Source: Candidatus Omnitrophota bacterium
GTDB lineage: Bacteria; Omnitrophota; Gorgyraeia; Gygaellales; Profunditerraquicolaceae
Assembly (NCBI GenBank): GCA_041645145.1
Contig: JBAZQO010000001.1
Span: 2,327-66,326, forward strand
Reading direction: 5' to 3'
DNA length: 64,000 nt
The notes beneath the pieces are model-generated. The model saw nothing but the letters and a program-made list of their open reading frames with translations. It did no database searches and was not told the origin of the DNA. The stretch's first letter is position 1; every line of letters begins with the position of its first letter. This document shows positions 1,527-49,218 of this stretch, piece after piece. The translations under genes and the position numbers were made by a program.

Positions 1527-2840
1527 TTAAGTTACAGTCATTGCCTGATCGGTTTCCCTGGCTGAGTTTTCGATTAATTTGCTTATACCGGAGAAGCGGC
1601 TTGCCAGGCTTTCTATACAAGATTTAAAATTGAGCAATAAAACCTCCAAGAACCCGCTATTGAGATTAACCTGCTGTTTTTTGATTAGCCCGCTCCAATC
1701 CTGGTGCAGTTGGGAGAGATTAAAGAATCTGTCCAATAGCCGGTCATCCCGTATTTTATAAACGGAGAAAAGTAAATGCCTGTGCAACGTTTTATTAAAC
1801 TCCCTATCACTGAATTTCATCCTCATAAAAATAGATAGGATCAGCCCCAAAGCCAAAAAATTCTGCGGAAAGGTATCTTCCTTTTGAATCAGGCTGGAAA
1901 GGTTTCTTTTTGAGCAATCAAAATGATAAAAAAAGGTTAAGTCCAGCAAAGAAAGCCAAAACGAGACCTTGGAATGCATAGCTATATTAAACTGACCCTG
2001 GCTACCGGGAAAATTAAAATAATCAAAATCCCTTAAAGAATGATGCAGGGCTATCAAAAAATCCAAATAAATTAATTTATATCTTTCATTATTCAGGTCT
2101 TCTTCTAAAAAACGGTTAGCCAATCCAATATTATCCTTGATCTTGAAAGCAAATCTTTCCGGATTTTTATAAAACCCTTCTTCCACATAAAAAGCAAAAT
2201 GCCATCTCCAGAAATTATTCAACAGTGAGAATAAATCATCTTCCCTTAAATGCCCTACGGCTGCTTGCGGCTCATAAACTAAATTATATCCGGTTTTCCT
2301 AAGACGCCTGGAAATATCCACATCTTCAAAGTTATTTCTATAGTTATCGTCGTAAAATCCTGCTGAGATCAGCGCCGCTTTGCGGAATAAAGTATTCGAA
2401 CCGAACAAAAAAGGAGGGTTGGTTTTCCGGCGCTCTCCCCAATGTTGCTGCATATGGACAGAGCGCCAAATGTCAAAGATACTAGAGGCCCCGGTTTCCA
2501 CAACTCTTCCCCCTGCTCCCGCCACATTTGACAGATTAATTCTTCCAACCAAATACTTAAGCCAATCTTTATCCGGCTTGCAATCGCTGTCTAAGGAAGC
2601 GATAAATTCGGCATCGGTATTTTTAATAGCGGTATTTCTTGCCGCTGCTAACCCCATGTTTTTAGCATGCTTAATGATCTTTACCGGATATTTCCCGGCA
2701 ATTGCAGCAGTCATATCGGTTGAGCCGTCATCAATAACCAGTATCTCATCCGCGGGCATACTCTGGTGCAACGCCCCCTCCAAACAAGCCCCCAGAGTCT
2801 TTTCTGAATTGAAGCAAGGAATACAGAGGGAGATTTTCAT
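1527..2840 (-). CDS. glycosyltransferase family 2 with long C-terminal extension
   Basis: N-terminus MKISLCIPCFNSEKTLGACLEGALHQS...ILVIDDGSTDMT is a GT2 (GT-A fold) signature including the DDG motif. Its ATG overlaps the stop of the upstream rSAM gene (2837-2840). Confidence 0.7.
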   Translation of the reverse strand: MKISLCIPCFNSEKTLGACLEGALHQSMPADEILVIDDGSTDMTAAIAGKYPVKIIKHAKNMGLAAARNTAIKNTDAEFIASLDSDCKPDKDWLKYLVGRINLSNVAGAGGRVVETGASSIFDIWRSVHMQQHWGERRKTNPPFLFGSNTLFRKAALISAGFYDDNYRNNFEDVDISRRLRKTGYNLVYEPQAAVGHLREDDLFSLLNNFWRWHFAFYVEEGFYKNPERFAFKIKDNIGLANRFLEEDLNNERYKLIYLDFLIALHHSLRDFDYFNFPGSQGQFNIAMHSKVSFWLSLLDLTFFYHFDCSKRNLSSLIQKEDTFPQNFLALGLILSIFMRMKFSDREFNKTLHRHLLFSVYKIRDDRLLDRFFNLSQLHQDWSGLIKKQQVNLNSGFLEVLLLNFKSCIESLASRFSGISKLIENSARETDQAMTVT

Positions 2841-4069
2841 AGCGAATGGATCTCTTCCCTTAATTTTCTTTTTAGCCGGCTGATCTCCGAAAGGATGATC
2901 TCTTTGTCTTCCCCGCCGCTTTCCCTTATGCGCCGGAATTTGTTAAAAATACCGGGTAGCCTCCTTTTGAGGAGGTTCGTTACCGAACCCTTGTAAGAAG
3001 AATAGAACCTGTACCTTAATTTCATTTTTATTACCTGGCTCTTTAAAAACTGCAAGGCCTTATTAGTCAGCTTTCGGTAACTGGCGATCCTTTTTACCTT
3101 TTTAGCCTTATCCAATATGTACGCTTTTGAGAATCGGCTGCCGAAAACTTCATCATAACAGCTCATCAGGCACCCGCTGCATCCGTTATTGATAATAGAA
3201 TTGATCAACTTCCTTCTTTTTTCAGACAACCATAATTCATACAGGCTTTCTTCCCTTATATTTCCAATCAGCTTATTATGCGAAGCTTCGATCCAACAAG
3301 GAAATATATCTCCGTTTGAATTAATGGGGCATGAATACCGAAGCGCGCCGCAATTATCCGGATGGAATTTCTTACCGGTTAAATATGCGGGTATTTTAAA
3401 TAAATAGTTTGCTGGATTAGTAGAAATTTTGCGTTCTTGAGAAATATCGATAAATCTGTGGATTATGTCCTCTATCTTCGGAATCTCCCGCTTATCTATT
3501 AAGAATTCACCCGCGCGTGCAGAATCCTTTAAAAAGATTGCATTAAAAGGCTGTAATCTTACGGTGGTAGCTCCGTACTCTCCAGCTATCTCTAAAACGT
3601 AAAGCAAGTCTTCATAATTATACCTTGATACAGTTGAAGCAACAGTAGTCTCTATTTTATATTTCCTGAGGTTGGCCAGGGCAGAGGCCGCTTTATCAAA
3701 ACTGCCGGGGCCCCTTAAGTAATCGTGCGTCCCCTTGGTTCCTTCTATAGAAATATTCACCACATTGGCCCCGGACGCGCTAAGCCTGGAGGCAACCTGC
3801 TCATCGATTAAACACCCGTTCGAAGTAACGCATGCGTTTAAATTATTCTTCTTTGCAAAGAAAATAAGTTCAAAAATATCCTCTCTTAATAGCGGCTCTC
3901 CTCCGCTAAAAACTACAGTCTGCGCTCCTAATCTAGAGGAGTCATTAATGACTTTTTTCCATTGATCAGTAGATAATTCCTCAATTTTTCCGCAAGGAAT
4001 ATCGCACATCCTGCATCGCAAATTACATCTATTGGTGATAGAAAATATGACTTCCTTTAGGTTAAGCAT
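2837..4069 (-). CDS. radical SAM / SPASM-domain protein (paralog 1)
   Basis: CNLRCRMC (CxxxCxxC) near the N-terminus; GGEPLLREDIFELI SAM-binding glycine-rich motif. The C-terminal Cys-rich region (CGALRYSCPINSNGDIFPC...GCSGCLMSC) is consistent with a SPASM or twitch auxiliary Fe-S domain. Confidence 0.75.
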   Translation of the reverse strand: MLNLKEVIFSITNRCNLRCRMCDIPCGKIEELSTDQWKKVINDSSRLGAQTVVFSGGEPLLREDIFELIFFAKKNNLNACVTSNGCLIDEQVASRLSASGANVVNISIEGTKGTHDYLRGPGSFDKAASALANLRKYKIETTVASTVSRYNYEDLLYVLEIAGEYGATTVRLQPFNAIFLKDSARAGEFLIDKREIPKIEDIIHRFIDISQERKISTNPANYLFKIPAYLTGKKFHPDNCGALRYSCPINSNGDIFPCWIEASHNKLIGNIREESLYELWLSEKRRKLINSIINNGCSGCLMSCYDEVFGSRFSKAYILDKAKKVKRIASYRKLTNKALQFLKSQVIKMKLRYRFYSSYKGSVTNLLKRRLPGIFNKFRRIRESGGEDKEIILSEISRLKRKLREEIHSL

Positions 4070-5205
4070 TCTTTCAGCAATTCTTCGTAATCTGTTAATT
4101 TGAATAATGCGGTAGATAATGATTCCTTTTTGCTTTTTCCATCAATATTATCTTTTTTCAGATCATAAATAAACGTATCAATAATGTTTGTCAATGAATC
4201 TGCCTTGGGATTGGCCCAGCAAGTTTGCAGGCAGGGTTTTTGACAATTCTTCATTGTTCTTCTGGCCTGATCAGCCTCCCTGGTTTTTAAACATTCCCCT
4301 AAACTCAAACCTTGGATATTTCCAAAGGCCGAGCCACAACTACGAACATTGCCGTCAGGGCCAACATTTACAAAAACAAACGGATTACATTTCCACTCTC
4401 TTTTGGTCAGTTCGCCCTTAAAATGCTTAACCCACATATACGGATCGTGAAGAAAAGCTACCAAACCATGATGTTTTTTATAATTAACTATTTTGTCAAT
4501 TTGCTGCTTTAATAACTCAATATCATTATCTTTAAGCCAAAAACGGGCTTTGGGCGAGGTATTCTGCATATCATCCTGATTAACAATAACCGGATGATAA
4601 ACTAAACACTCTGCGCCGGCTTCTTTAACAAGAAGTATGATATCAAAAAGTTCACCGACATTCTCCCTCATGATTGTAGCCCAAACTGATATTTGGGGGC
4701 CGGTCCCCAACTTACTCTTACTTTCGGCTAAATTATTAATAGCGGCTATGGCCTTATTAAAAGCCCCTTTTTGTCTTATGGCATCATGGGTCGCTTCTTC
4801 AGCTCCATCAAGTGAGATGGCGATATTCTTTAAACCGGATGATATAATCCTATCGGCTAAATCTTTAGTGATTAAAGCCCCGTTAGAAACAGCTTCTATT
4901 TTTAATCCTTTAGCGAATCCATATTCTACGATCTCAAATATATCGTTTCTTAAAAAAGCTTCTCCTCCGGTTATAACAACGGTCAAATCCCATCCCCAGG
5001 CAGCAATTTCATCAAATAGATTTTTCACTGCATCCTTATGCAATTCATAACCCTGCAAAATGTTGACTACCCCGCACATTTGGCAACGATAAGTACATTT
5101 ATGGCTAAGGCTTAAATAAATCCAAAGAGGCTTTGCCAAAGGCCTTTCCAATAACTCCGAGAAATAATACGCTAAGTCCTGCTCGAATCTTTTAATATAA
5201 CTCAT
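4057..5205 (-). CDS. radical SAM / SPASM-domain protein (paralog 2)
   Basis: CTYRCQMC; GGEAFLRNDIFEIV. C-terminal CNPFVFVNVGPDGNVRSCG...CQKPCLQTC. Overlaps its neighbour gene by 13 nt. Confidence 0.75.
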   Translation of the reverse strand: MSYIKRFEQDLAYYFSELLERPLAKPLWIYLSLSHKCTYRCQMCGVVNILQGYELHKDAVKNLFDEIAAWGWDLTVVITGGEAFLRNDIFEIVEYGFAKGLKIEAVSNGALITKDLADRIISSGLKNIAISLDGAEEATHDAIRQKGAFNKAIAAINNLAESKSKLGTGPQISVWATIMRENVGELFDIILLVKEAGAECLVYHPVIVNQDDMQNTSPKARFWLKDNDIELLKQQIDKIVNYKKHHGLVAFLHDPYMWVKHFKGELTKREWKCNPFVFVNVGPDGNVRSCGSAFGNIQGLSLGECLKTREADQARRTMKNCQKPCLQTCWANPKADSLTNIIDTFIYDLKKDNIDGKSKKESLSTALFKLTDYEELLKECLT

Positions 5206-5222
5206 AAGATAACTTTTTAAAA

Positions 5223-6512
5223 TTATGCCGCCAGTTTATAGTTTTTTAATACTTCTTTTTTAAGTATATTCAATTTATAAACCTCTAATCTTTTCTGATT
5301 AAAATTACCCAAGAAATTGGGCTTTACGCGCTTTAACAACTCATTGATACAATAATCTATCCTGGATATTATTCGTTCACGGGCATTAGCATTATCCAAG
5401 CATCCTTCTATTCCGGTAAGAAAATGTTTCACCTGCCCTGAAATATCCATGGGAAAATATACACAATCTTGAAGGCAATGAGCTTTGCATTTATTCACAG
5501 TATCTCTAATCTTTTGTGCTTGCAGCGAAAACCAAATCTGTCTTAAATTTTCTTTTTTAAAATCGCCATAGAGCCCCTTACAACTCCATAATTTACCATC
5601 GCACGTTATAACTATCCGCTTAATCCCCTCATAACATTTAAAACGCCTCCCAGGCTTTTTGCCCCTGAAATAACCAGGGATGGACTTCAATATGGCAGGG
5701 TCTGTGTATATGAGAATGTCCTTGGTTTCTTCTTTAATGTTGACTAGCTTACATATATTTTCCTCTAAAAGTGGCATCTCTTCCACCGATGGCCATAATG
5801 AATTTTTCTTACGTTCATACATGCTAACATTGCTCATCAAAACAGGCTGAAACACAACGGTATTGCATTTTTTGCTTTTGGCAAATTCAACGATCTTCAG
5901 CATATCGTTAATATTTTTATTCATGATGGTAAAATTTATGCCGATGGACGGACTGGTTACCTTCATTTTTTCTTTGTAATAATTCAATTTATCGATTGCA
6001 TCAACGGACTTAGCGAAAGAGCCTTCACCCCTTATCGCGTCATTTACTCCGGAAATACCGTCTAATGAAATAGTAACGTGGTTTAACCCCGAACCGATTA
6101 AACTTTGCGCCGCTTCATCATTGCATAATGCTCCGTTTGTAATAATATCCACCCAGGGAATACCGCTCTCCCTGGAAAATCTTATAAGCTCCGTAAGATC
6201 TCCGCGCAGCAGCGGCTCGCCTCCAGAGAAAATAAGATGTTTCACGCCTAAATCTTTTATTTGTAATATAATTTTCTTTATCTCGTCAGTATTCAACTCA
6301 TCTTCCTGCCTACCCGGAGATTTAGGTATATCGCACATAACACAGCGTAAACAACATCTATTGGTTAACGAGAAATAAACATGTTCAGGTGGCACCAGAG
6401 GATAAGAAACTATCCGGCTGGCATAGAATCCTATCATATCCTCGACTTTTATCAGTTCTCTTTCTAAGTACTTATCCATTACTGCCCTTGCCGGTAGATA
6501 TCCCAAATACAT
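5223..6512 (-). CDS. radical SAM / SPASM-domain protein (paralog 3)
   Basis: CCLRCVMC; GGEPLLRGDLTELI. C-terminal CYEGIKRIVITCDGKLWSC...CKAHCLQDC. The true start is probably an internal Met (M12 or M26), because the first 41 nt overlap the upstream gene. Confidence 0.75.
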   Translation of the reverse strand: MYLGYLPARAVMDKYLERELIKVEDMIGFYASRIVSYPLVPPEHVYFSLTNRCCLRCVMCDIPKSPGRQEDELNTDEIKKIILQIKDLGVKHLIFSGGEPLLRGDLTELIRFSRESGIPWVDIITNGALCNDEAAQSLIGSGLNHVTISLDGISGVNDAIRGEGSFAKSVDAIDKLNYYKEKMKVTSPSIGINFTIMNKNINDMLKIVEFAKSKKCNTVVFQPVLMSNVSMYERKKNSLWPSVEEMPLLEENICKLVNIKEETKDILIYTDPAILKSIPGYFRGKKPGRRFKCYEGIKRIVITCDGKLWSCKGLYGDFKKENLRQIWFSLQAQKIRDTVNKCKAHCLQDCVYFPMDISGQVKHFLTGIEGCLDNANARERIISRIDYCINELLKRVKPNFLGNFNQKRLEVYKLNILKKEVLKNYKLAA

Positions 6513-7527
6513 TCCTTAAGCTGGAAGATGATTCCCTGGAGTAACAGGATTGTAGACATAACTTTTCGCATTTTTTTGAATGCCTCCTCAATTCATGGGC
6601 CTCTTTTGATCTCCAGGCCCCTTTTAACGACATCATGTTCAAATTTCCGCATATCCCGTGGCAGGTATAAACAAGCGGTTCGTTCTTAGAAAAACATATG
6701 AATACAGTCTTAAGCCCTCCGAAACAAACCCAATCCGGTTTCTTAAGTGTGCCCTGATAATATTTAATTAATAATTCCGGGCGTGGTTCTTTTAACACAA
6801 CAATATGTTTCCATGCGGTTTTTTCTATTTTTTCAATTTGATCTCTTAATAACGGTATCTTCTCTGCGGCCACCCAGTTTTGCGGAATCTTTCTTTCCAC
6901 GAAATTGGCATTATCGCTGATCAGCGGCTGAAAGTTAATCACATCGACGTTTAGGTCATCGGCTAATTGCGCGATATCATGAAGCTGGGAAACATTTTCA
7001 TCCATAACCGTGACAGCGATACCCAATGAGAAATTCCTGCCTGCGGCCTTCTTCTTGCCAAGCAATTTAATGCCTTCAACGGTTTTAGCGAAAGTATGCT
7101 TTCCTCTGTAATAATCATTCGTATTTTCCAGGCCATCGAGCGAGAAATGGATATGGTCTAAGTTTGATCCAGCTATCCGCTCTGACATATCAGCGTCTAT
7201 AAGCACGCCGTTAGTAGTAATAATATTTCTCAATCCCTTGGCATGAGAATAATCGCATATACTAAACAGGTCTTTCCTTAAAAAAGGCTCCCCCCCTGTT
7301 AAAAGCAGCTCTTTTACCCCATAAGAAGCGGTTTCATCAACTACCCTGTATATCTGTTCGGTAGACAATTCTTCATCCGGCGGCAACAAATCAACTATAC
7401 TGCACATGCGGCACCTTAAGTTACACCTGTAACTAAGGGAGATTTGTACCACCTCCGGATGGATTAAAGGATAATTCATCTTCCGGGATAACCAATAAAA
7501 CAGGTTATTCATCATTTCTCTCCGCAA
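6472..7527 (-). CDS. radical SAM / SPASM-domain protein (paralog 4)
   Basis: CNLRCRMC; GGEPFLRKDLFSIC. C-terminal CFGGLKTVFICF...CHGICG...CEKLCLQSC. The N-terminus (FYWLSRKMNYPLIHPEVVQISLSYRC) closely parallels paralog 5. Confidence 0.75.
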   Translation of the reverse strand: MRREMMNNLFYWLSRKMNYPLIHPEVVQISLSYRCNLRCRMCSIVDLLPPDEELSTEQIYRVVDETASYGVKELLLTGGEPFLRKDLFSICDYSHAKGLRNIITTNGVLIDADMSERIAGSNLDHIHFSLDGLENTNDYYRGKHTFAKTVEGIKLLGKKKAAGRNFSLGIAVTVMDENVSQLHDIAQLADDLNVDVINFQPLISDNANFVERKIPQNWVAAEKIPLLRDQIEKIEKTAWKHIVVLKEPRPELLIKYYQGTLKKPDWVCFGGLKTVFICFSKNEPLVYTCHGICGNLNMMSLKGAWRSKEAHELRRHSKKCEKLCLQSCYSRESSSSLRNVFGISTGKGSNG

Positions 7528-7540
7528 AAACTACCCCTAA

Positions 7541-9517
7541 CTATTTCGTAGCCCAAAGAGTAATGGCCGGGCCATGTTCATGCTTCTCTTTCCCGATTAT
7601 CTCAATTGAATTAAAGCCCGCATCTCTGATTGCTGCAAGCAAATCTTCTTCAAATAACCAAAACACCCTTTTCTCCAAACCACACACAATATCATTGATA
7701 TTCTCATCAAAATATTTTCCGCGGTAAATGCGATTATTCCACCTGGTTCCTTCAGCCGGAGCGATAGGATAACTATCATTGGCGTAATGCGACCAGACAA
7801 AAAGGCTGTTGCAGAGCTGGCCAATTCGATAAAGCAGCGCAACTGGGTTATTTAGATGATATAGAACTCCTGATGCCAGGCATAAATCAAAATGACCGGA
7901 AAAAGAGCTTAACACTTCATTCGCGTCACCAAATAAAAATTCGCATTTATCTAATTTGAACGCATTCTTAACGATCAGCGCTTTCAGAAAGTTTTCTTTT
8001 CTGCCTTCGATAGAGATAACCTTTTTAGCTCCGTTCCCCTGCAGTAGAGATGAATGCATCCCTTCCAAACAACCCATATCCAGAATAGTTAACCCTTTCA
8101 GGTTTATTCTTTTTCTTATCTCATTGATCTTTGATTCAAAAGGAACGCCTGGTTTAGGCTGTCCCGAAACAGAAATCTCTTCAAACGAAAAATTACCCAC
8201 CCAATTTTGAAAAATCCCAAACCCATATAATTGGGATATTGTTAACGACCCCCTAAAAGAGTTGAGTATATTCTCTAATTTCTTTAACGTATTTACAATA
8301 TCGCTATCCGGCTCTTCAGTCTTTGAATTAAGGACCCCTCTCATTGATTGCAAAAAAAAGTATTCTTCTTTGCGAATGGTAATTTGGGCGTCCCGAGGCA
8401 AGTTTCTTATTTCTATCTCTAATTGTTCATGAATTAAACTAATGTCGTCCGATTGTGAGCGTTCTGAACAAAATTGGGTGCAGCTTTTTTTACAATTCTT
8501 GATCATTTCCCTGATTTTACCGGTATCCTCTGCATACCATAATTGTTTCAGGCTGTCTTTTTTGATATTCCCGAATGACTGTAAGCATACAAAACTCATA
8601 TCTCCCTGCGGATTTACAAAAATCCTGTTGAATCCCGCAAAACAGGTATTCTCAAATCCCTCTCCCCGGAAATGTTTGATGGTTTTCTCCGGCATGATAT
8701 CTATATGCATGAAACCTGAAAATTGTCTCTTTTTGGCAATCAAAATATCGAAAATTTGCTGCAGCCTGGGGATATCCTTTTCTTCAATCCAGAGTTCATT
8801 ATTTTCTAAAGGTGCGGGTAAATCCCCGTTATTCACCAAGGGCTGGAAGGCTATATAACAACAACCTATTTTTCTTGCCAAATCAGCCAAGGCAGGCAGT
8901 TCCTCCATATTCTTCTTCATGATCACGCTTACCATTGCAATATCCAAAACCCTATCTTCGCTATTACGGCCGCGGCCATATTTTTTTTTATAGTAATTAA
9001 GATACTCAATGGAACGCATCGCTTTCTCAAATATTCCTTCACCCCGGAAAAAATTATGCGTTTTGGGGCTTGCCCCGTCGATAGAAAAACTTATATTCCT
9101 TAATCTTGACCTTACTATTTTTTCAGCAGTCTCTTCGTTGATAAAACCACCATTAGTATTAATTGTAGTGACGATCCCAGGGCGAGCAGCGTAATCGATT
9201 AACTCAAATATGTCTTTTCGCAGGAGCGCTTCGCCTCCGGTAAAATAAATCGTCTTTATACCCATAGATAGGGCTTCATCAATAAACCTTTTAATGTCTT
9301 CTGCACCTGCTTCTTCCTGAAACCGCTGCTTCCATACATTACACATCTTACACTGAAGCTGACAACGGGACGTAACCATAAGCTGCAGCATATCAGGCTC
9401 AACCATTGCTTTATTTAATAAGCGGGAAAAATTAAACAAATAATCCCTTTTGTGCTTATTAAAAATTTCTTCCATCCTATCCACGACCATGATACTCCCC
9501 CATTCTGGAAATAACAA
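7541..9517 (-). CDS. fusion protein: N-terminal radical SAM/SPASM domain + C-terminal class I SAM-dependent methyltransferase domain
   Basis: N-terminal half: CQLQCKMC, GGEALLRKDIFELI, CFAGFNRIFVNPQGDMSFVC...CKKSCTQFC. C-terminal ~200 aa: LTILDMGCLEGMHSSLL resembles the Rossmann-fold methyltransferase motif I (hhDhGCGxG-like), followed by hydrophobic and acidic motifs. Confidence 0.65.
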   Translation of the reverse strand: MLFPEWGSIMVVDRMEEIFNKHKRDYLFNFSRLLNKAMVEPDMLQLMVTSRCQLQCKMCNVWKQRFQEEAGAEDIKRFIDEALSMGIKTIYFTGGEALLRKDIFELIDYAARPGIVTTINTNGGFINEETAEKIVRSRLRNISFSIDGASPKTHNFFRGEGIFEKAMRSIEYLNYYKKKYGRGRNSEDRVLDIAMVSVIMKKNMEELPALADLARKIGCCYIAFQPLVNNGDLPAPLENNELWIEEKDIPRLQQIFDILIAKKRQFSGFMHIDIMPEKTIKHFRGEGFENTCFAGFNRIFVNPQGDMSFVCLQSFGNIKKDSLKQLWYAEDTGKIREMIKNCKKSCTQFCSERSQSDDISLIHEQLEIEIRNLPRDAQITIRKEEYFFLQSMRGVLNSKTEEPDSDIVNTLKKLENILNSFRGSLTISQLYGFGIFQNWVGNFSFEEISVSGQPKPGVPFESKINEIRKRINLKGLTILDMGCLEGMHSSLLQGNGAKKVISIEGRKENFLKALIVKNAFKLDKCEFLFGDANEVLSSFSGHFDLCLASGVLYHLNNPVALLYRIGQLCNSLFVWSHYANDSYPIAPAEGTRWNNRIYRGKYFDENINDIVCGLEKRVFWLFEEDLLAAIRDAGFNSIEIIGKEKHEHGPAITLWATK

Positions 9518-9547
9518 TATTTCACATTAGCTTATAGGAAAAGAATA

Positions 9548-10912
9548 TTAAGAAATACCGCCCTTATAAACTCCTAAGATTTTAGCCAACCCGAATAACA
9601 TTCCTCTTCTTATTTCCCGGATCCTTGGGCTGTTCTTCCCCCTGATATACCATTCTGAGTTATTATTATAGCGGATATTCAAAGAACCCTGCTCTCTCCA
9701 TAACCGCGATTTATGCGGGATATAACAGCTGCTGACACTTACGAACTCATCAATATATTCCCGGTTATTAAATAAAAAGATCATAGTCTCTATAACGTCG
9801 CTCCATCTTTCCGCAGGATAGCCTACCATCCATAATGTATTAACCCTGATTCCGGAATCGTGAGTTCTCCGTAAAGCTTGAGAAATATGTTTTTTTAGCG
9901 GCTTGCCCATATGCGCCAGGACTCTGGCGGCCCCGCTTTCAATGCCATATGTAAAATAAATCCCGCCTGCTTTCTTTATTTTGCACAGAAATTCCTGCGA
10001 CATTTCTATCCGCGCCCGGGCCATACCTCCCCATTCAAAATTATTCTTACTGGCGATTATTTTATCCGTTAATTGCCCCAATTTCTCTAAATCTCCGTTA
10101 ATCATTAAATCGTTGCACTTAAAACGCCTGCGGCCAAAGAGCTCGCCATGCTTTATCATTTCTTCAAGGATGTTATCGGCGCTCCTCATGCGATACCTTC
10201 CCCACATAGGCGCGTCCGTACAGAATGCGCAGCTATAATTACATCCCCGGCTGAAAATAATCGGGATTTCTAATTTATTAGTATAGCGCTCGAGATCAAA
10301 TAGTTTTAGTGCAGGAGACAGGATGCTATCAACATCCAAAGGATTCGCATCCCAACCATTATCTTTGAAACCGGTGCCCGTATTAACCAATGTGCCTTCT
10401 AAGGCTAAATCCATTATGGATTCGCCACGCTCAATTATTTTCGCTATTCTACTAATGATCTTCTCGCCTTCCCCCCGGACATAAACATCAACATTGTTAT
10501 TCAACTCTCCGGATTCTATAATCTCCGTGCACAAGGGACCGCCAAATACAATACAGGCATCCTTCGCTTTCTTCTTTAATACATCCGCCAATAAATTAGC
10601 CAATATTCTGGAATGGCTGTTAACGCTTAAACCTATAATTTTTGGATCACACTCCAAAACGGTTTCTGTCCATTTTTCTACCAAATCCGAAACATTAAAA
10701 TTTCTATTTATTTTTTCTAAAGAAGCCCAGTGATCGGAATTTTCCCAGTCCCACAAAAATTGTTTATCTTTACTCTCTACGTATAGTTGAGAATTGAAAC
10801 AAAAAACAGAAACTTTATATCCGTCATTCATTAACTGGCTGGCTATATATGCTATGCCCAAAGGTGGCATATCAACTCCGTAGAGAGGAGGAAAGACCAA
10901 GGCTACATTCAT
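9548..10912 (-). CDS. B12-binding (class B) radical SAM protein
   Basis: The N-terminus MNVALVFPPLYGVDMPPLGIAYIASQL...GYKVSVF is typical of a cobalamin-binding domain. Further on is IIFSRGCNYSCAFCTD (CxxxCxxC). Its stop overlaps the next gene's start (ATGA). Confidence 0.75.
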   Translation of the reverse strand: MNVALVFPPLYGVDMPPLGIAYIASQLMNDGYKVSVFCFNSQLYVESKDKQFLWDWENSDHWASLEKINRNFNVSDLVEKWTETVLECDPKIIGLSVNSHSRILANLLADVLKKKAKDACIVFGGPLCTEIIESGELNNNVDVYVRGEGEKIISRIAKIIERGESIMDLALEGTLVNTGTGFKDNGWDANPLDVDSILSPALKLFDLERYTNKLEIPIIFSRGCNYSCAFCTDAPMWGRYRMRSADNILEEMIKHGELFGRRRFKCNDLMINGDLEKLGQLTDKIIASKNNFEWGGMARARIEMSQEFLCKIKKAGGIYFTYGIESGAARVLAHMGKPLKKHISQALRRTHDSGIRVNTLWMVGYPAERWSDVIETMIFLFNNREYIDEFVSVSSCYIPHKSRLWREQGSLNIRYNNNSEWYIRGKNSPRIREIRRGMLFGLAKILGVYKGGIS

Positions 10913-11970
10913 TTTTGCTTTCTAAAGTTATTTTTTAAGATATCCCTTAAGCTGGCTGATTCCTGCCGGGCGTGACAATCCTGAAGGCAGTAATTACGGC
11001 ATTTTTTGATTTTAACCCTTCTTTTCTTAGCCTTAAGAGAAAACCAATTATTTTTTACCGAAGGCTCTCTTCTTATATTCCCGATTTCTTCGCCGCACAT
11101 TTGGATTGAGCCGCCGGGGACTACTACAAACCTGCGATAACCTGCAAAACAAACCCAATCACCCTCACACAGATCCCTCCTGAAATATTTCTTTATTAAA
11201 TAAAAACTGGGATAGTTCAGGCCGTATCCTTTCTGTTGAAGAAGATCGATTTTATCTATCATCTCATCCAGCTTTTTTAAACGGTCACCAGTAATCCACA
11301 AATTTCCTTCACTGCTCCCAGAGTCCTGCTTATACAACTTAACATTGTTCAGGACAACAGAAGTTATATACAAGGCGTCAACCGACAAACCTTTGGCAAG
11401 ATGGAAATATTCCTCTAATTCATCAAGGTTATAATTAGATAGGGTCAATATCAATACCTTGATTAATTTCTTTTCCTCCGGGGAATTATTTAAATGCCTT
11501 ATTCCCTGCATTATTTTATCGTAAGCGCCGGGTTGGGCTCTAATTTTATCATGCGTTTTGCCTCTGGCGCCATCAAGGGATATCGTAATTACATCAAGCT
11601 TAGACTGAATTAACCTTCTTGCCACCTCTTCAGTTATCAGCGTGCCATTCGTGGTTAGAATAACGGTTAAGCCCAGCGATTTTGCATATTCTATAACATC
11701 AAAACATATCTCGCACAAAAGAGGCTCTCCTCCGCATAGATTGACTTCCTTAACCCCCCATTCGCGGCACTGATTCAGAATATCCTTAATTTCTTTAAGG
11801 GTTAATTCCTCGCTTATGTTTGCAGCCTTCCATACGCTACACATCTCGCATCTAAGATTGCATCTACTGGTAAGGGATATCTGCAGGGTATCGGGTGGAA
11901 CAAGAGGGAAATTAATCTTTCGCGACAGCCAAAATCCGAAATCCCTTTTTATTTTATCAATTTTATTCAT
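10909..11970 (-). CDS. radical SAM / SPASM-domain protein (paralog 5)
   Basis: CNLRCEMC; CGGEPLLCEICFDVI. C-terminal CFAGYRRFVVVPGGSIQMCGEEIGNI...CRNYCLQDC. Confidence 0.75.
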   Translation of the reverse strand: MNKIDKIKRDFGFWLSRKINFPLVPPDTLQISLTSRCNLRCEMCSVWKAANISEELTLKEIKDILNQCREWGVKEVNLCGGEPLLCEICFDVIEYAKSLGLTVILTTNGTLITEEVARRLIQSKLDVITISLDGARGKTHDKIRAQPGAYDKIMQGIRHLNNSPEEKKLIKVLILTLSNYNLDELEEYFHLAKGLSVDALYITSVVLNNVKLYKQDSGSSEGNLWITGDRLKKLDEMIDKIDLLQQKGYGLNYPSFYLIKKYFRRDLCEGDWVCFAGYRRFVVVPGGSIQMCGEEIGNIRREPSVKNNWFSLKAKKRRVKIKKCRNYCLQDCHARQESASLRDILKNNFRKQK

Positions 11971-11991
11971 AATCCAGCGGTAATGTTATTT

Positions 11992-13914
11992 TCAATCGCA
12001 AAAACAAGGCAAAAGACAGGGATTTTTGCACTCCCTGACCCTTTTTCTTGCCTGCACACTCTTTTCAGATTCGAAAATCTTTCTTAAGGAGTCTTTCCGG
12101 ATATTACCATAACTTTCAAAACAAGTAGCTACATCGCCGTTGTTAGCAACCAGAACCGTCTTAGCTGCATAAAGGCACTTTACATCGCCTTGGGATAAAT
12201 ACCCCCGGAAATATTTTTTTACAAGCCTGAGGTTATTCTCTGAATTACGCACAAGGAGATAATTATCTTTTTTAAATTCAAGCAATTTATCTATTACCGC
12301 ATCTAATACTGCCAGCCTCTCCTGAGGTATCCAGTATTTAGTTCCCCCCCTCCTCTCTTTCATTATTAGATTATTGGGAAGCAGGGGTTGAAACTGGATA
12401 GAATTAACATTGAGTGATTTTAAAAAAACAGCTAAGTCCAAAAGCTCTTCCAGATTCTCATTAAGAATTATAGAGATAGTGTTAAAATTTATACCTCGAC
12501 CCCTTTTCTTTAATCGGGAAAGTTTTTCCAGGGCAGCGGATGTCTTCTGGAAAGCTCCTTCGACCCCACGTATTTCATCATGAATTCCAGGGTTCAACGC
12601 GTCAAGTGAAATACTCAAAGAGAGGCTCCCCGAATTAAAATATGGCAGTAACTTATTAATAAAATATTCATTCAATATAATGCCATTAGTCAGCACGCCT
12701 ATATGGTAATTTTTTTCTTTTACAAAATCTAATATTTCAAAAATGTCCTCTCTTATAAAGGGTTCTCCGCCGGATAAAACAAATTCCCTGACTCCCCAGC
12801 CAATAGCTTCATTTATAAGATTTTTTATTTCATCCGAGGTGTACTCCCCGATTGGCTTATCTTTTCTTATTTCACAGATATTACATTTAAGATTACACCT
12901 GTGCGTAATATCCAAAATAATAACTTCCGGCTTGGGAGGATTGCTGACGGTGTTATTTTGGCCATTATTTAAGTCATTCTCCGGTATTTTTGCTGCTCTT
13001 ATATGCTCTACCGTATTACCGATTAAATAATTCACTTTATGCAACGCAAAATAAAGGAAAATTTGGAACTTTTCATATAAAGTAATGTGGGTAAGCGACC
13101 GGATTAAACGCCTGCCCAAAAGATAAGAAAAGCGCGGGATCTTGAAAAAATTTATGATTGACCCAAAAATAAAATAAGTGTTATTTTGAGTCTTTATTTC
13201 CTTTAATAGGGGGTGGTCTTTATGCACATGTTGCACCAAGTAATTCCCCCGGCCGTACATATACGCCTGTTTTAAAAATGAAATGATGTTTGTATGACAA
13301 TCGTGGAATATTTTTATATCTTGCTTATAGCTAAGCCTGCCGCCATTTTTAAAAATCCTCCAGAATAAATCTAGATCTTCACCTGCGGGAAAAGGGAACA
13401 GTTCATTGAAACCATTGACAAGATAATCTCGCTTAAAAGACACATTGCAAGTCGGGAAAAATATAGTTTCGGGCTTTCCCTTTATCTCGGTTGCTATTGC
13501 TCCGTCACTTAAAAATTGGCTAACCTTCGCCTTAATATTATGGCTGGCGACCTCAGTAGTACCCCCAATTGCTGCGATATGTTTCTCTAATCTATGCGCC
13601 TGAACCATCTGCCTGACCCAATCTTTATTCAAGATACAATCGCTATCCGTAAAACCGATTATTTCTGCAGATGCATATTTTATGCCTAAATTTCGCGCAA
13701 CAGCAGGGCCTTTGTGCTGTTGAATAAAATACCTCAAGTTAGGATTTATTTTAGAAAGCGCCTCAAGCATATCTTTAGTTCCATCATTAGAACCATCATC
13801 TATTACAATTATCTCAAAGGCATCTTTTGGATAAATCTGCGCGAATAAGGAATCGAGGCATTGTCTGAGTTTGAGCTTTCGATTATAAGTAGGAACTACT
13901 ATAGTAAAATCCAT
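11992..13914 (-). CDS. fusion protein: N-terminal GT2 glycosyltransferase + C-terminal radical SAM/SPASM domain
   Basis: N-terminus MDFTIVVPTYNRKLKLRQCLDSLFAQ...IIVIDDGSNDGT (GT2). C-terminal half: ILDITHRCNLKCNICEIR (CxxxCxxC), GGEPFIREDIFEIL, CLYAAKTVLVANNGDVATCFESYGNI...CKNPCLLPCFCD. Confidence 0.7.
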   Translation of the reverse strand: MDFTIVVPTYNRKLKLRQCLDSLFAQIYPKDAFEIIVIDDGSNDGTKDMLEALSKINPNLRYFIQQHKGPAVARNLGIKYASAEIIGFTDSDCILNKDWVRQMVQAHRLEKHIAAIGGTTEVASHNIKAKVSQFLSDGAIATEIKGKPETIFFPTCNVSFKRDYLVNGFNELFPFPAGEDLDLFWRIFKNGGRLSYKQDIKIFHDCHTNIISFLKQAYMYGRGNYLVQHVHKDHPLLKEIKTQNNTYFIFGSIINFFKIPRFSYLLGRRLIRSLTHITLYEKFQIFLYFALHKVNYLIGNTVEHIRAAKIPENDLNNGQNNTVSNPPKPEVIILDITHRCNLKCNICEIRKDKPIGEYTSDEIKNLINEAIGWGVREFVLSGGEPFIREDIFEILDFVKEKNYHIGVLTNGIILNEYFINKLLPYFNSGSLSLSISLDALNPGIHDEIRGVEGAFQKTSAALEKLSRLKKRGRGINFNTISIILNENLEELLDLAVFLKSLNVNSIQFQPLLPNNLIMKERRGGTKYWIPQERLAVLDAVIDKLLEFKKDNYLLVRNSENNLRLVKKYFRGYLSQGDVKCLYAAKTVLVANNGDVATCFESYGNIRKDSLRKIFESEKSVQARKRVRECKNPCLLPCFCD

Positions 13915-16629
13915 TTATTTATCTTGTATAGTTAGAAGACCGGAAAAATAATGATATTTGCCGGGGGAAAAATTTGTTTGCGCGGAAGAAGAGTATTGTA
14001 AAATCCTGCCGCGATGATATCTATCGGAATTTATTATTTTAAGATGCCATTGTGGATTTGATTTTTTGAGAGACAAAGAAACCCGCGGTAAATTATATAT
14101 AGGATTCTCTCTTAAGCTAATAATTCGATCGTCTTTTTTACCACTCCATAAACAATCCCAGTTATCATCAACATCATCTGCGAATTCGGGAAAGAAACCC
14201 TCTTCCTTGTCAACCAGCCATTGAGAAAATCTCTCAGAAAACATAATATTGGACTGAAGACAATCTACCTCAATTTCTTTTTCTACTTCCAGCCTGACCA
14301 TCCATTCAAATAACCCATCATCTTTAATCGCTATCTCCCATTCCTGAGACAAGGGCAGCTGGAGCCATTTGCCAACAGCTTTAATTTGCTGGCTATCTTT
14401 ATAGATAATTTTCCAAGAAGCAGAAGAAAAAGAGTCATGCCAACGCCCCTTTGAACGCATTGAGGTATAGAGGGCGATATTCTTGGTAAGCTCCTCACCG
14501 TTTTTATAAAACCTCCCGCTTCCTTTATTAAATACAAATCTGATATTTTTATCTTCGATGATATTATTAAGCTTATCAATGTCCGTTGTTTTGTTTCTAT
14601 CCAAAACAAACCGCGTCCTAAAGCATTCATATTTACCCGGGGAAAACATAACGTTTATTTCCGGCTCAACCTTTTCCAAATGTAAGAGCCTTGCTTTACT
14701 ATAATGATCGGAGTTAAAAACTTTTATAAAATTGCCTAATTTTTCGGAGAAAAACAAAGAGACCTGGGGGAGACTTCCCGTAGGATCCCTTAATCCCACT
14801 TCTCCCGTAGAAACACACCTTTGCAATAAATCTACCTCCGTATCATTAAATGTGTCGCTGAATTTCTCAGAAACAAACTTACTAAAGAAAAGCTTAAAAT
14901 CTGCGGGGAAAAAACACCTTAGGCGCTGATGTTCAATAGCGATATCCCGTTTGGCTTCAATATCAACATCCCAGGTAAAAGAAAGACCATTGCATATATT
15001 GATGCGCCATGTTTGAGAAATTCCAAGATCATCCCAGTTACCTCGGGCAATCAATATATTATCTGACTCTTTTTCTAGCGTCCAGCGAGCCAAATCTGAA
15101 GTAAACCATCTCTGCTTTGTAAAAAATGCGGAATACATATGGCCGGCCTTAGTTAAAGGGATGTTATCAAAGAATACACTTAGCCTGCCATTATCAAATA
15201 TCAATTTTAACTTTTTGTTTGAAATAATAAACTCGTTTTGTATCTTAGAGACATAATCATGAATATCGGCAATATTAACCTTTATCGCGCCTGAAAAACA
15301 GATAAACCTACTGGGCTGGTTAATTGGGTTGCTGGAGATAGGTATCGTTTTATACTGCAGTATACGTCCGGGATTCAAATAATCAGAATTTAATACGGTC
15401 CCCTGACCAAGATATCTTAAGCGGGATTGTTCAAAAAACAAAGCTGGAAGCTTACCGGAAGCAGATTCCTGCGGATATACGCCAATGCAGACACTGGGTC
15501 CATTCTTGAAAAATATGGATTTCCAGTTCTTATCCTCTTCTTTTATAACAGGAAATTCTCCTTGTTCCGAGTCAACAAACCACTGCTTATAGCCGTCAAC
15601 GAGCATAACGTTAGCGTATATCTGGTGTAATTGTATATCTGTCTCCGTTTCAATTTCTATGTCCCACTTAATCTCATAATTATCAGATACCTCTATCCTC
15701 CAAATCTGAGACAGTGCAAGATGATAAAACTTACCCGTTGCTACCAACTTACCATTTGATTCCTCAACATCCCATTCTGCCTGAGTAGAACTATACCATA
15801 CGCCGGATATTCCAAATGTCGTATAAACTCCGGGAAAAGACGTGATTAATTTACCTTCCCAATTCAACAATAGGCGGCCGTTATTGAATACAAGGCTAAG
15901 CTGTTTTCTCGCAACAATGGCTATTCCCTTCGGGCTGCCGACTGCCTGCGAATAAAAAGACGCTACCTTGGCCGTTTCTCCATCTTTAATCATCATTCCA
16001 TTTTTCAAAAATATCGTTCTTTTGCACAGTTTCTGCAGCATTGCCATATCGTGGGTAACGATGATAACTGTTTTGCCGCTTTCTCCCACTTTAAATATTT
16101 CTTTAATACATTTTTTTTGGAAATACTCATCTCCCACGGCAAGCGTATCATCTATCAGGAAAATTTCCGGCTCCATATGAATGGCTATGGCAAAAGCCAA
16201 CCGCACAAACATGCCTTGCGAATAACACTTTACCGGGGCGTCTATAAACTTGCCGATCTCGGCAAAGTCGATAATCTGCTGATACCTTTTATTAATTTCA
16301 TCGCGGCTTAAGCCAAATAATTCAGACTGTAAAAAAATATTCTCTCTTCCCGTAAGCTCCGCTTGAAAGCCCGCGCCCAATTCCAGGAGCCCCGATACGC
16401 TGCCGGAGATATTTGCCTGGCCGCGGTCAGGATTTAACATTCCGGCAATTAATTTTAAAATGGTCGACTTACCCGAACCATTCTCGCCGATAATCCCCAG
16501 CGACTCACCCCTCTCCATAGAAAAACTGATTCCCCGCAAGGCCCAGAAATTTTGCCATGAGGCCTTACCCTCAATAATAAACTTGATGCGATACATCTCC
16601 CATACATCATTAAATTTAATTATAGGCAT
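13915..16629 (-). CDS. wzt: Wzt/KpsT-type ABC transporter ATP-binding protein with ~670-aa C-terminal extension of three tandem repeat modules
   Basis: N-terminal ~235 aa: Walker A GENGSGKST, signature-like YSQGM, Walker B IFLIDD, H-loop VTHD. This is the polysaccharide-exporter ATPase family. The remaining ~670 aa form three ~220-aa repeats, each with an L.L.FNNGRL...W..L..SQ.WRI...W.V.IE...DI core and an NSD(Y/H/R)...RILQY...SPGKY(E/H)(C/Y)F tail. Confidence 0.75.
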   Translation of the reverse strand: MPIIKFNDVWEMYRIKFIIEGKASWQNFWALRGISFSMERGESLGIIGENGSGKSTILKLIAGMLNPDRGQANISGSVSGLLELGAGFQAELTGRENIFLQSELFGLSRDEINKRYQQIIDFAEIGKFIDAPVKCYSQGMFVRLAFAIAIHMEPEIFLIDDTLAVGDEYFQKKCIKEIFKVGESGKTVIIVTHDMAMLQKLCKRTIFLKNGMMIKDGETAKVASFYSQAVGSPKGIAIVARKQLSLVFNNGRLLLNWEGKLITSFPGVYTTFGISGVWYSSTQAEWDVEESNGKLVATGKFYHLALSQIWRIEVSDNYEIKWDIEIETETDIQLHQIYANVMLVDGYKQWFVDSEQGEFPVIKEEDKNWKSIFFKNGPSVCIGVYPQESASGKLPALFFEQSRLRYLGQGTVLNSDYLNPGRILQYKTIPISSNPINQPSRFICFSGAIKVNIADIHDYVSKIQNEFIISNKKLKLIFDNGRLSVFFDNIPLTKAGHMYSAFFTKQRWFTSDLARWTLEKESDNILIARGNWDDLGISQTWRINICNGLSFTWDVDIEAKRDIAIEHQRLRCFFPADFKLFFSKFVSEKFSDTFNDTEVDLLQRCVSTGEVGLRDPTGSLPQVSLFFSEKLGNFIKVFNSDHYSKARLLHLEKVEPEINVMFSPGKYECFRTRFVLDRNKTTDIDKLNNIIEDKNIRFVFNKGSGRFYKNGEELTKNIALYTSMRSKGRWHDSFSSASWKIIYKDSQQIKAVGKWLQLPLSQEWEIAIKDDGLFEWMVRLEVEKEIEVDCLQSNIMFSERFSQWLVDKEEGFFPEFADDVDDNWDCLWSGKKDDRIISLRENPIYNLPRVSLSLKKSNPQWHLKIINSDRYHRGRILQYSSSAQTNFSPGKYHYFSGLLTIQDK

Positions 16630-16630
16630 A

Positions 16631-17422: not shown

Positions 17423-17430
17423 TCCGCTCC

Positions 17431-34725: not shown

Positions 34726-34775
34726 TAGAAACAGGTTACCAGAGGCAACCGTGAGGTATCTCTGATGTATTGTTT

Positions 34776-36068: not shown

Positions 36069-36069
36069 T

Positions 36070-49150: not shown

Positions 49151-49218
49151 AAAGGGACGCTTAATTGGAGACCTTCTTATTGGCTGATAAACCTTTGGGA
49201 AGGTTAGCGTCCCTTTTA
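49151..49218 (-). terminator. long-range stem (12 bp) enclosing an inner hairpin, immediately 3' of the giant ORF stop
   Basis: aaaagggacgct ...45 nt... agcgtccctttt. The inner part has ccttc..gaagg pairing. On the minus strand it is followed by UUAUUUG. Confidence 0.45.

Follow-up and report, generated by a model that had tools for sequence, protein, structure and literature searches.

The locus analysed here raises the question of why a single gene joins a radical SAM enzyme to a methyltransferase, and of whether the two enzymes that it encodes work together. The window (the whole 64,000-nucleotide stretch of DNA that was analysed, from a MAG of an uncultured Candidatus Omnitrophota bacterium) carries on its reverse strand the 658-residue ORF described in the first-pass annotation, at 7541..9517(-), but this is the maximal ORF, read from a TTG codon, and the gene itself is likely to be shorter. 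It probably begins at the ATG at 9490, which lies 5 nt downstream of the sequence GGGGGAG (containing a GGAG ribosome-binding site), and this gives a fusion gene, D+MT, at 7541..9490(-) that encodes 649 residues plus the stop. The database protein P0001 is 100% identical over 649 aa, and the exact fused protein is known from this one contig. From the N-terminus, the protein consists of a radical SAM core with a CX3CX2C motif, a five-cysteine SPASM-like domain and a class I methyltransferase. All of the motifs quoted previously (CQLQCKMC, GGEALLRKD, CKKSCTQFC and ILDMGCLEG) were found in the sequence, and the Pfam profiles Radical_SAM, Methyltransf_11 and Methyltransf_23 all scored above their gathering cut-offs. 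An AlphaFold2 model of the fusion protein was obtained with a mean pLDDT of 92.5 and a pTM of 0.75, and Foldseek searches with this model recovered both folds, including a methyltransferase fold in the C-terminal half. Pfam, NCBIfam, PDB sequence matches, AlphaFold2 and Foldseek therefore agree that one protein holds both a radical SAM domain and the fold of a class I SAM-dependent methyltransferase, and these data confirm that the fusion of a radical SAM enzyme with an ordinary sugar-type methyltransferase is real.

The radical SAM half, D, belongs to the radical SAM superfamily by motif, by profile and by its partial TIM-barrel fold. Its cluster motif, Cys43/Cys47/Cys50 in the 649-residue numbering (9341..9364(-)), is invariant in all 50-51 orthologue rows covering these residues, and the domain matches Pfam Radical_SAM (PF04055) with 80.9 bits against a cutoff of 29.5 (1.6e-22). 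Further along, Pfam SPASM (PF13186) matches with 29.3 bits against a cutoff of 21.5, at residues 292-347 in the 658-residue numbering. The five cysteine residues of this SPASM-like region, Cys 283, 302, 333, 337 and 341 (8468..8644(-)), are kept in 84-100% of the orthologue rows covering them. They are arranged as C-x12-G-x5-C ... CX3CX3C, whereas the canonical seven-cysteine pattern, which holds two auxiliary clusters, is CX9-15GX4C...CX2CX5CX3C...C. As a sequence pattern, the five-cysteine arrangement is compatible with one auxiliary cluster in a twitch-like manner, and it is probable that the domain binds one auxiliary Fe-S cluster or more. The first-pass annotation had rightly identified a radical SAM/SPASM protein, but its estimate of approx. 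380 residues was too short. A C-terminal tail of approx. residues 345-414 (8249..8458(-)), modelled as the three helices 350-361, 366-388 and 396-415, is common to all of the unfused D orthologues, and because this tail belongs to the radical SAM protein, the protein proper ends at residue 414. Residues 1-414 thus correspond over their whole length to the unfused D orthologues, the position of which in the cluster is conserved. Foldseek placed this half close to SuiB, SkfB, BlsE, PqqE and MoaA with E-values of 1e-10 to 1e-14 and a TM score of 0.73 for BlsE, which is also the best PDB sequence match (E 1.6e-12); a further PDB match is the tetraether synthase 7tol. None of the radical SAM proteins of the cluster reached a curated NCBIfam cutoff.

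The C-terminal methyltransferase fold had likewise been recognized correctly, but its extent was corrected from approx. 200 residues to residues 416-649 (7544..8245(-)). This module, hereafter MT, exceeded the Pfam cutoffs (given in parentheses) for Methyltransf_9 with 35.2 (23.8), Methyltransf_31 with 28.2 (27), Methyltransf_23 with 27.4 (27) and Methyltransf_11 with 24.9 (21.2) bits, and stand-alone MT orthologues are 48-76% identical to it. By phmmer it matched 5t38, a structure of EvdMO1, with an E-value of 3.4e-15 over 207 residues, and the first-ranked Foldseek match was 5t39, in which the EvdMO1 methyltransferase domain is bound to SAH and D-fucose (E 6.7e-15 and a TM score of 0.77 on the target). 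Many SAH-bound methyltransferase structures were among the other fold matches. The model shows alternating strands and helices over residues 468-568, with beta6 and beta7 at 628-648 and high pLDDT throughout, which is the seven-stranded Rossmann-like fold of class I. Motif I, ILDMGCLEG (residues 469-477; 8060..8086(-)), aligns with ILELGALEG of EvdMO1 and, as D-M-G-C-L-E-G, is without the middle glycine of GxGxG; the same variant is present in EvdMO1, which was crystallized with SAH. Conserved across the MT family are G473, E476 and G477, all three almost invariant, E495 at the end of beta2 (35/37 sequences), D522, D535, Y544, H545, W566 and H568. Among ten long MT-family members that we checked, none carried a radical SAM domain, and the family member P0120 carries two fused GT2 domains. 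By analogy with the sugar complex of its homologue, and from its gene context, the MT half, which corresponds in full to a stand-alone EvdMO1-type class I enzyme, is most likely a sugar O-methyltransferase.

How this fusion arose can be read from the closest relative, L009, in which D and MT are separate genes in the order D-Y1-Y2-Y3-MT, where Y1-Y3 are three radical SAM genes. Comparison by blastn showed that window positions 17415 down to 8248 correspond to L009 positions 2082-11246 and window positions 8247 down to 1623 to L009 positions 14567-21191, such that the window is without exactly 3,320 bp of L009 and the flanks, of 9.2 and 6.6 kb, are collinear. The junction falls within codon 415, TCG (Ser; 8246..8248(-)), in which the T comes from the ancestral TAA stop codon of D and the CG from MT codon 3 (CCG). 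Unfused D proteins end in NSLRG followed by the stop, and stand-alone MT proteins begin M(x)(x)LT(I/V)xQLYGF. A search of the junction for repeats or microhomology found nothing convincing. This alignment indicates that the fusion is the product of one recent in-frame deletion of 3,320 bp in this lineage, which took out the three intervening radical SAM genes together with the ribosome-binding site and start codon of MT. An artefact of assembly, in which a metagenomic mis-join has linked genes that are separate in the real genome, might be suspected, as the exact protein is known from a single contig and the closest relative is unfused. It is very improbable, however, given a join that falls in frame inside one codon between two long collinear flanks, a junction at which no repeat that might mislead an assembler was seen, and an equivalent natural fusion known from three independent samples. 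Both halves are under purifying selection, with dN/dS values versus L009 of 0.10 for D and 0.16 for MT and similar values for the neighbouring genes. The fusion could nevertheless be a neutral by-product of the loss of Y1-Y3, in which the in-frame join was how expression of MT survived.

The equivalent fusion, P0006, comes from a distant lineage and joins the same two partners in a protein of 667 aa that is 54% identical and was found in three samples. Its linker differs from that of D+MT, being 16 residues longer and retaining the Met of MT, and in the trees the window adjoins the unfused L009 and lies far from L004. These comparisons indicate that the P0006-type fusion arose independently of the one in the window. 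The twofold origin of the same fusion is evidence of a common pathway or complex, and of no more than that. In L007, L008 and L009 the D and MT genes stand 2-4 genes apart, with a GT2 gene directly after the MT gene in L007 and L008. MT belongs to a variable cassette, and in the P0003 lineage (L001 and L002), where D is present, no MT lies at the syntenic position between Y3 and E. A different fusion of a radical SAM protein with a methyltransferase, of the Methyltransf_31 type, is found in P0067 (844 aa) from another Omnitrophica MAG, so such fusions are not unique in the phylum. A genome scan with the single protein returned two already known contigs and one unrelated methyltransferase.

The surroundings of D+MT are those of a surface-glycan locus. 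Immediately upstream lies C (9548..10912(-)), with Pfam B12-binding and Radical_SAM domains, which in P0035 and P0038 is fused to a D-type protein; this is followed by B (10909..11970(-)), a radical SAM paralogue of 353 aa, and A (11992..13914(-)), a protein of 640 aa in which a GT2 glycosyltransferase is fused to a radical SAM-SPASM domain and which was found in all four related lineages with contigs covering the position (L001/L003, L004-L006, L008 and L009/L010). Next to these are a Wzt-like ABC ATPase of 904 aa (13915..16629(-)) and a Wzm-like ABC-2 permease (16631..17422(-); Pfam ABC2_membrane), and the cluster continues upstream (17431..22177(-)) with TPR, FAD amine-oxidase-like, WecA-like and GT1 genes by Pfam and NCBIfam, the WecA-like protein being of the polyprenyl-phosphate HexNAc-1-P transferase type and GT1 a glycosyltransferase family. 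The downstream part of the operon (1527..7527(-)), assigned by Pfam and the orthology map, consists of the radical SAM genes E (6472-7527), F (5223-6512), G (4057-5205) and H (2837-4069), all on the minus strand, and a GT2 gene (1527-2840(-)). The operon genes are tightly packed with gaps of 0-57 nt. The operon thus encodes seven radical SAM proteins in addition to D+MT, with approx. 30-33% mutual identity, which bears out the previously proposed local family of radical SAM-SPASM paralogues. The cluster as a whole, comprising WecA, GT1, Wzm, Wzt, the GT2-radical SAM fusion, approx. eight radical SAM genes and GT2, is conserved in Candidatus Omnitrophota MAGs. The Wzt protein consists of a nucleotide-binding domain and three tandem galactose-mutarotase-like beta-supersandwich modules; no Wzt_C-type carbohydrate-binding domain was found in this C-terminal extension, which has a fold of the carbohydrate-enzyme type.

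Given this context, we consider it probable, with some reservation, that D+MT is a bifunctional tailoring enzyme of a Wzm/Wzt ABC-transporter-dependent surface-glycan pathway, in which both domains act independently on the same lipid-linked glycan. The CX3CX2C cluster of D would cleave SAM to give a 5'-deoxyadenosyl radical, and the ensuing hydrogen abstraction would initiate a change in a sugar, which might be epimerization, oxidation, dehydration or the formation of a C-C or C-O bond. MT would methylate a hydroxyl of the glycan. The two active sites would work independently on the cytoplasmic side of the membrane, on one and the same glycan linked to undecaprenyl diphosphate, and the modified product would be exported by Wzm/Wzt. 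We infer the glycan substrate, the O-methylation and the action of both domains on one polymer from homologues and gene context. A glycan substrate, as already suggested in the first-pass annotation, is made plausible by the complex of EvdMO1 with SAH and D-fucose, by the MT-family member fused to two GT2 domains and by the WecA/GT1/GT2/Wzm/Wzt setting.

Several other readings of the locus were weighed. In one, MT, like WbdD, adds a cap at the non-reducing terminus of the glycan, and the C-terminal modules of Wzt read this cap and license export, in line with the earlier idea of terminal methylation as a chain-stop signal. That a Wzt carbohydrate-binding domain can read a terminal modification is well established (PMC9445017), and both the weak sequence matches of MT to the WbdD methyltransferase domain (E approx. 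5e-4) and the large Wzt extension with its carbohydrate-associated fold would fit. However, MT matches EvdMO1 far better than it does WbdD (3e-15 versus 5e-4), Pfam found no kinase or coiled-coil ruler domain, the Wzt extension is not of the Wzt_C type, and MT, as part of a variable cassette, is gone from L001 and L002, the Wzt proteins of which are still 73% identical over their full length; the evidence leans against a chain terminator, which we regard as unlikely. That the two domains modify the same glycan residue in sequence does not follow from the fusion, which arose by a recent deletion; the nearest relatives keep the genes apart. Another reading would have MT first adding an O-methyl (or other) group and the radical SAM domain then abstracting a hydrogen from or beside it, which would give a bridge, a ring or a C-C bond. 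Such an enzyme would correspond, in an anaerobe, to methyltransferase-oxygenases of the EvdMO1 kind, with hand-over of the substrate on one residue. The Omnitrophota are anaerobes, and in anaerobes radical SAM enzymes often stand in for oxygenases. In addition, identical partners were fused twice independently, full-length EvdMO1 (6ec3) also has an oxidative tailoring domain as fusion partner of its methyltransferase, and the pTM of the two-domain model may hint at a defined mutual orientation. Against this, MT in the unfused relatives adjoins GT2 or E rather than D, the P0003 lineage has D without MT at that locus, and the two domains of EvdMO1 reportedly act independently, to judge from the title of its structure paper, which counsels caution in reading mechanism into a fusion. 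We therefore consider coupled chemistry of this kind doubtful.

An improbable alternative is that the substrate is not a glycan at all, but that the enzymes mature a RiPP-like peptide or modify a lipid and the ABC transporter exports the product. In structure, the radical SAM half comes close to SuiB, SkfB and PqqE, the best NCBIfam matches include peptide maturases, all below their cut-offs, and those of the B12-binding neighbour include RiPP C-methyltransferases and a lipid B12-radical SAM family, again below the cut-offs; the match to the tetraether synthase and an FAD desaturase-like gene in the cluster could also be cited. Yet only approx. 32 residues, forming a single helix of approx. 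25 residues, precede the radical SAM core, and there is thus no RiPP-recognition domain; no small precursor ORF was found in the tightly packed operon, and the maturase NCBIfam scores lie far below the cut-offs for the RiPP-maturing radical SAM/SPASM class. Three GT2 domains, a WecA-like transferase, GT1 and the Wzm/Wzt pair are present, members of both the radical SAM and MT families are fused to GT2 domains, and the fold of the Wzt modules is that of carbohydrate enzymes, all of which speaks for a glycan. A more far-reaching glycan reading, to which we give equally little credence, is of an anaerobic glycan-tailoring pathway driven by radical SAM enzymes and so far confined to the Omnitrophota, in which D+MT couples O-methylation with radical cyclization or bridging of the same sugar. 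In such a pathway, 8-11 radical SAM enzymes, some of them fused to GT2, B12 or MT modules, may produce a heavily rearranged surface polysaccharide, which may be exported by a Wzt with three mutarotase-like sugar-binding modules, and D+MT could be the oxygen-independent counterpart of methyltransferase-oxygenases such as EvdMO1.

Full-text literature searches found no Wzm/Wzt cluster rich in radical SAM enzymes and no fusion of a radical SAM/SPASM protein with a class I methyltransferase. The fusion represents no new enzymatic principle, as both domains come from well-known superfamilies and their joining is a young deletion product. Its value is rather that of a natural ‘Rosetta stone’, a clue to the partnership of two proteins: since two separate events fused them, an uncharacterized radical SAM family and a sugar-type methyltransferase can be linked to each other within one pathway. 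In the conserved Omnitrophota cluster, standard Wzm/Wzt glycan export goes together with exceptionally many radical SAM enzymes. Should lipid-linked glycans be their substrates, the known chemistry of bacterial surface polysaccharides in anaerobes would be widened. As a single polypeptide, D+MT would lend itself well to in vitro study.

Among known systems, WbdD with the Wzt carbohydrate-binding domain of Escherichia coli O8/O9a likewise places a class I methyltransferase in an ABC-transporter-dependent glycan pathway. The similarity of MT to WbdD is weak, however, and covers only motifs I-III (approx. 83 residues of the Rossmann core) with no WbdD-specific Pfam match; the kinase domain and coiled-coil ruler of WbdD are missing here, the Wzt extension is instead galactose-mutarotase-like and in three copies, and MT is dispensable at the locus in one lineage. 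In gentamicin biosynthesis, according to PMC4340712, the class I SAM methyltransferase GenN and the radical SAM enzyme GenD1 act successively on the same sugar ring, but these are separate proteins of a secondary-metabolite pathway, and GenD1 is a B12-dependent C-methyltransferase and not of the SPASM type. CmoB (Methyltransf_9), a tRNA carboxymethyltransferase, gives the MT core its best family match in both Pfam and NCBIfam, with structural matches at approx. 1e-10. We rejected a CmoB-like carboxymethyl transfer because the Rossmann core alone matches, at profile positions 103-205 of 315, and TIGR00452 scores 44 bits against an equivalog cutoff of 275, with a match to its positions 105-208 of 316; the gene context here is unrelated to tRNA.

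For the radical SAM half, the nearest relative in the PDB by sequence is BlsE, a cytosylglucuronate decarboxylase with a sugar substrate and one of several radical SAM enzymes with SPASM or twitch domains that act on carbohydrates. D does not belong to the curated BlsE family, as it scores 57 bits with TIGR04466 against a cutoff of 400; it also differs from BlsE in its cysteine pattern and in its extra three-helix tail. For the MT half, the closest solved relative by both sequence and structure is EvdMO1 from the everninomicin pathway of Micromonospora carbonacea (5t38, 5t39 and 6ec3), the functional properties of which we take in part from PDB entry titles and one reference title. The identity between the two is only approx. 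23%. EvdMO1 serves a secondary-metabolite pathway in an aerobic actinomycete, whereas D+MT lies in a Wzm/Wzt surface-glycan cluster, and its partner domain is a C-terminal non-heme-iron oxygenase in place of the N-terminal radical SAM enzyme found here. Nevertheless, EvdMO1 and MT share the unusual motif I, LE(L/M)G(A/C)LEG, EvdMO1 was crystallized with a sugar as well as SAH, and in both proteins the methyltransferase is fused to a redox tailoring domain, which in EvdMO1 acts on an oligosaccharide.

The first-pass annotation had described a 658-aa ORF in which a radical SAM/SPASM domain is joined to a C-terminal class I methyltransferase, and this holds. The ORF lies at 7541..9517 on the minus strand, counted from a TTG codon; from the sequence itself, however, the ATG at 9490, preceded by GGGGGAG at a suitable spacing, is most likely the true start of a shorter, 649-aa product. 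An identical 649-aa database copy (P0001) from a Candidatus Omnitrophota MAG is annotated by NCBI as 'radical SAM protein'. In Pfam, Radical_SAM matched at 80.9 bits (cutoff 29.5) and SPASM at 29.3 bits (cutoff 21.5), and Methyltransf_9, _31, _23 and _11 all exceeded their gathering scores in the C-terminal third. Against NCBIfam the last 303 residues matched CmoB, TIGR04290 and UbiG, each far below the curated cut-offs. The AlphaFold2 model, computed with 84 homologues, had a mean pLDDT of 92.5 and a pTM of 0.75 and no disordered segment. In the PDB, Foldseek placed the N-terminal methyltransferase domain of EvdMO1 first (E 6.7e-15; TM 0.77 on the target; entry 5t39, a crystal structure with SAH and D-fucose) and matched the N-terminal half to SuiB, SkfB, BlsE (TM 0.73), PqqE and MoaA. 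By sequence, the methyltransferase domain aligned with EvdMO1 over 207 residues (3.4e-15), including an unusual motif I (ILDMGCLEG compared with ILELGALEG in EvdMO1), and the radical SAM half matched BlsE at 1.6e-12; matches of the methyltransferase domain to CmoB and WbdD reached only ~3e-4 to 1e-3. Together these data confirm the two-domain architecture, and the alternative, a C-terminal half without a methyltransferase fold, did not hold.

Residues are numbered here on the 649-aa product. Within the radical SAM part (D, residues 1–414), the CX3CX2C motif (Cys43/47/50) is invariant in the 50–51 orthologue rows covering these positions. The SPASM-like region, with five conserved cysteines (283, 302, 333, 337 and 341; pattern C...G-x5-C...CX3CX3C), differs from the canonical seven-cysteine motif and is predicted to hold at least one auxiliary cluster. 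Three helices follow at approximately residues 345–415 and belong to the radical SAM protein in every unfused orthologue. The methyltransferase module (MT) occupies residues 416–649, and G473, E476, G477, E495, D522, D535, Y544, H545, W566 and H568 are conserved in both its fused and stand-alone homologues.

A word-indexed search with the target retrieved 70 relatives. The closest relatives of the radical SAM part (84–89% identical) are just 415–423 aa long and are therefore unfused, and MT alone has some 23 stand-alone relatives (209–269 aa, 48–76% identity), those with a named source all being Omnitrophota. An exhaustive HMMER search at E<=1e-10 extended the MT family to 866 cluster representatives, for the most part stand-alone; none of ten long members checked carried a radical SAM domain, their partners being GT2 or other methyltransferase domains. 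The same fusion recurs in P0006 (667 aa, 54% identity across the full length). Other neighbours are also fused in these clusters, D with a second radical SAM domain (721–737 aa) and D with the neighbouring gene C (849 aa). A separate 844-aa protein from a Candidatus Omnitrophica CG11 MAG (P0067) combines radical SAM (residues 119–267) with a Methyltransf_31-type domain (residues 580–730), so such fusions arose more than once in the phylum, with different partners.

The origin of the fusion was traced by gene-neighbourhood look-ups and a BLASTP orthology map, which revealed a single conserved cluster whose cassette between D and the next radical SAM gene, E, varies. This interval holds Y1, Y2, Y3 and MT in L009, the closest relative; Y1, Y2, Y3, a TPR/GDSL protein, MT and GT2 in L007; X1, X2, MT and GT2 in L008; Y1, Y2 and Y3 without MT in L001 and L002; and MT alone, fused to D, in the window and in L004, the locus of P0006. 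Window 17415 to 8248 is collinear with L009 2082–11246 (78% DNA identity) and 8247 to 1623 with L009 14567–21191 (77%), indicating that the window lacks 3,320 bp of L009 comprising Y1–Y3, the MT ribosome-binding site and the first 7 nt of MT. The junction falls inside a single codon, the T of the TAA stop of D and the CG of MT codon 3 (CCG) giving TCG, Ser415; the product joins the two proteins end to end, each of them complete. After deletion of Y1–Y3, MT would have been expressed only if in frame with D, and we propose that the fusion was fixed for this reason. P0006 has a linker that is longer by 16 residues and in which the former MT methionine persists (…NLMSAAISKLYGFE). Since trees of D, MT and C place the window beside unfused L009, and L004 on a distant branch, two independent fusions are most parsimonious. 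The P0006 fusion is present in three samples, and an assembly artefact is very improbable. The dN/dS values against L009 (D 0.10, MT 0.16; neighbouring genes 0.08–0.15) indicate purifying selection on both halves.

The genes from ~1079 to 22177 all share the minus strand and are closely spaced. In transcription order they encode a GT1-family glycosyltransferase, a WecA-like polyprenyl-phosphate HexNAc-1-P transferase, an FAD amine-oxidase-like protein, a TPR protein, Wzm, a 904-aa Wzt, a 640-aa GT2 + rSAM-SPASM fusion (A; 11992–13914, minus strand), a radical SAM protein (B), a B12-binding radical SAM protein (C), the target, four further radical SAM paralogues (E–H) and a GT2. None of the radical SAM proteins of the cluster reached a curated NCBIfam cutoff. 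Fusion A, kept in all four related lineages whose contigs cover the position, makes a direct connection between radical SAM chemistry and the product of a glycosyltransferase. The operon at 1527–13914 (minus strand) encodes eight radical SAM domains, and its relatives up to eleven (L001, L004, L007, L008, L009 and L011). The variable D–E cassette and the frequent neighbour fusions resemble what serotype-style variation would produce at a glycan-tailoring locus. In L001 (14563–15593) the E orthologue, which is frameshifted or a pseudogene, is broken into two ORFs of 130 and 216 aa; its contig, JAVHQB010000093.1, is labelled Candidatus Paceibacterota by GTDB and is probably mis-binned, as it carries an Omnitrophota-type cluster at 71–89% identity. 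Elsewhere in the window, all on the minus strand, are an apparent V/A-type ATPase operon (32315–38947; A and B subunits and an I-subunit-like protein identified), a 2,545-aa ORF with no Pfam family at E<=1e-5 (49216–56853), which is an orphan giant protein of a sort reported for Omnitrophota, and a 1,251-aa GyrA (59660–63415) whose intein carries a LAGLIDADG homing-endonuclease domain.

The first-pass annotation had also suggested that Wzt could recognize methylation as the signal to stop the chain. Relaxing the Pfam threshold to E 1 still gave no match to the 674-aa C-terminal extension of Wzt, which is built from three homologous ~220-aa modules (mutual identity 27–29%) and is conserved in 67 cluster representatives, all source-named matches being Omnitrophota. 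The extension differs from the known Wzt carbohydrate-binding domain; the galactose-mutarotase-like fold of its modules is typical of carbohydrate-active proteins, which supports a glycan cargo. Chain termination is possible but disfavoured, and we consider it unlikely, because MT matches EvdMO1 much better than WbdD, the target has no kinase or ruler domain, MT occupies a variable, cassette-like position, and the D–E interval of L001 and L002 lacks MT although their Wzt is full-length and 73% identical.

The likeliest reading, to which we give somewhat better than even weight, is that D modifies a sugar and MT methylates a hydroxyl of the same polymer. The CX3CX2C cluster of D would generate a 5'-deoxyadenosyl radical for modification of a sugar in an Und-PP-linked polymer; carbohydrate precedents among radical SAM enzymes include epimerization, oxidation, dehydration and C–C or C–O bond formation. 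MT would methylate a sugar hydroxyl, and each active site would work on its own on that shared polymer. Coupled chemistry, in which methylation precedes the radical step, appears improbable. A peptide or lipid substrate is more doubtful still; a precursor-peptide gene was sought in the cluster, with no candidate and no space between genes.

We found no description in the full-text literature of non-subscription journals of a radical SAM/SPASM fusion with an EvdMO1-type methyltransferase, or of a Wzm/Wzt cluster with so many radical SAM genes; the cluster is a more unusual feature than the fusion itself. GenN and GenD1, a class I methyltransferase and a radical SAM enzyme, act successively on one sugar as separate proteins (PMC4340712). 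In both domain type and logic, EvdMO1 is the nearest known analogue: a methyltransferase of the same family is joined there to a domain for the oxidative tailoring of an oligosaccharide. The partner domain, domain order, organism and type of pathway all differ.
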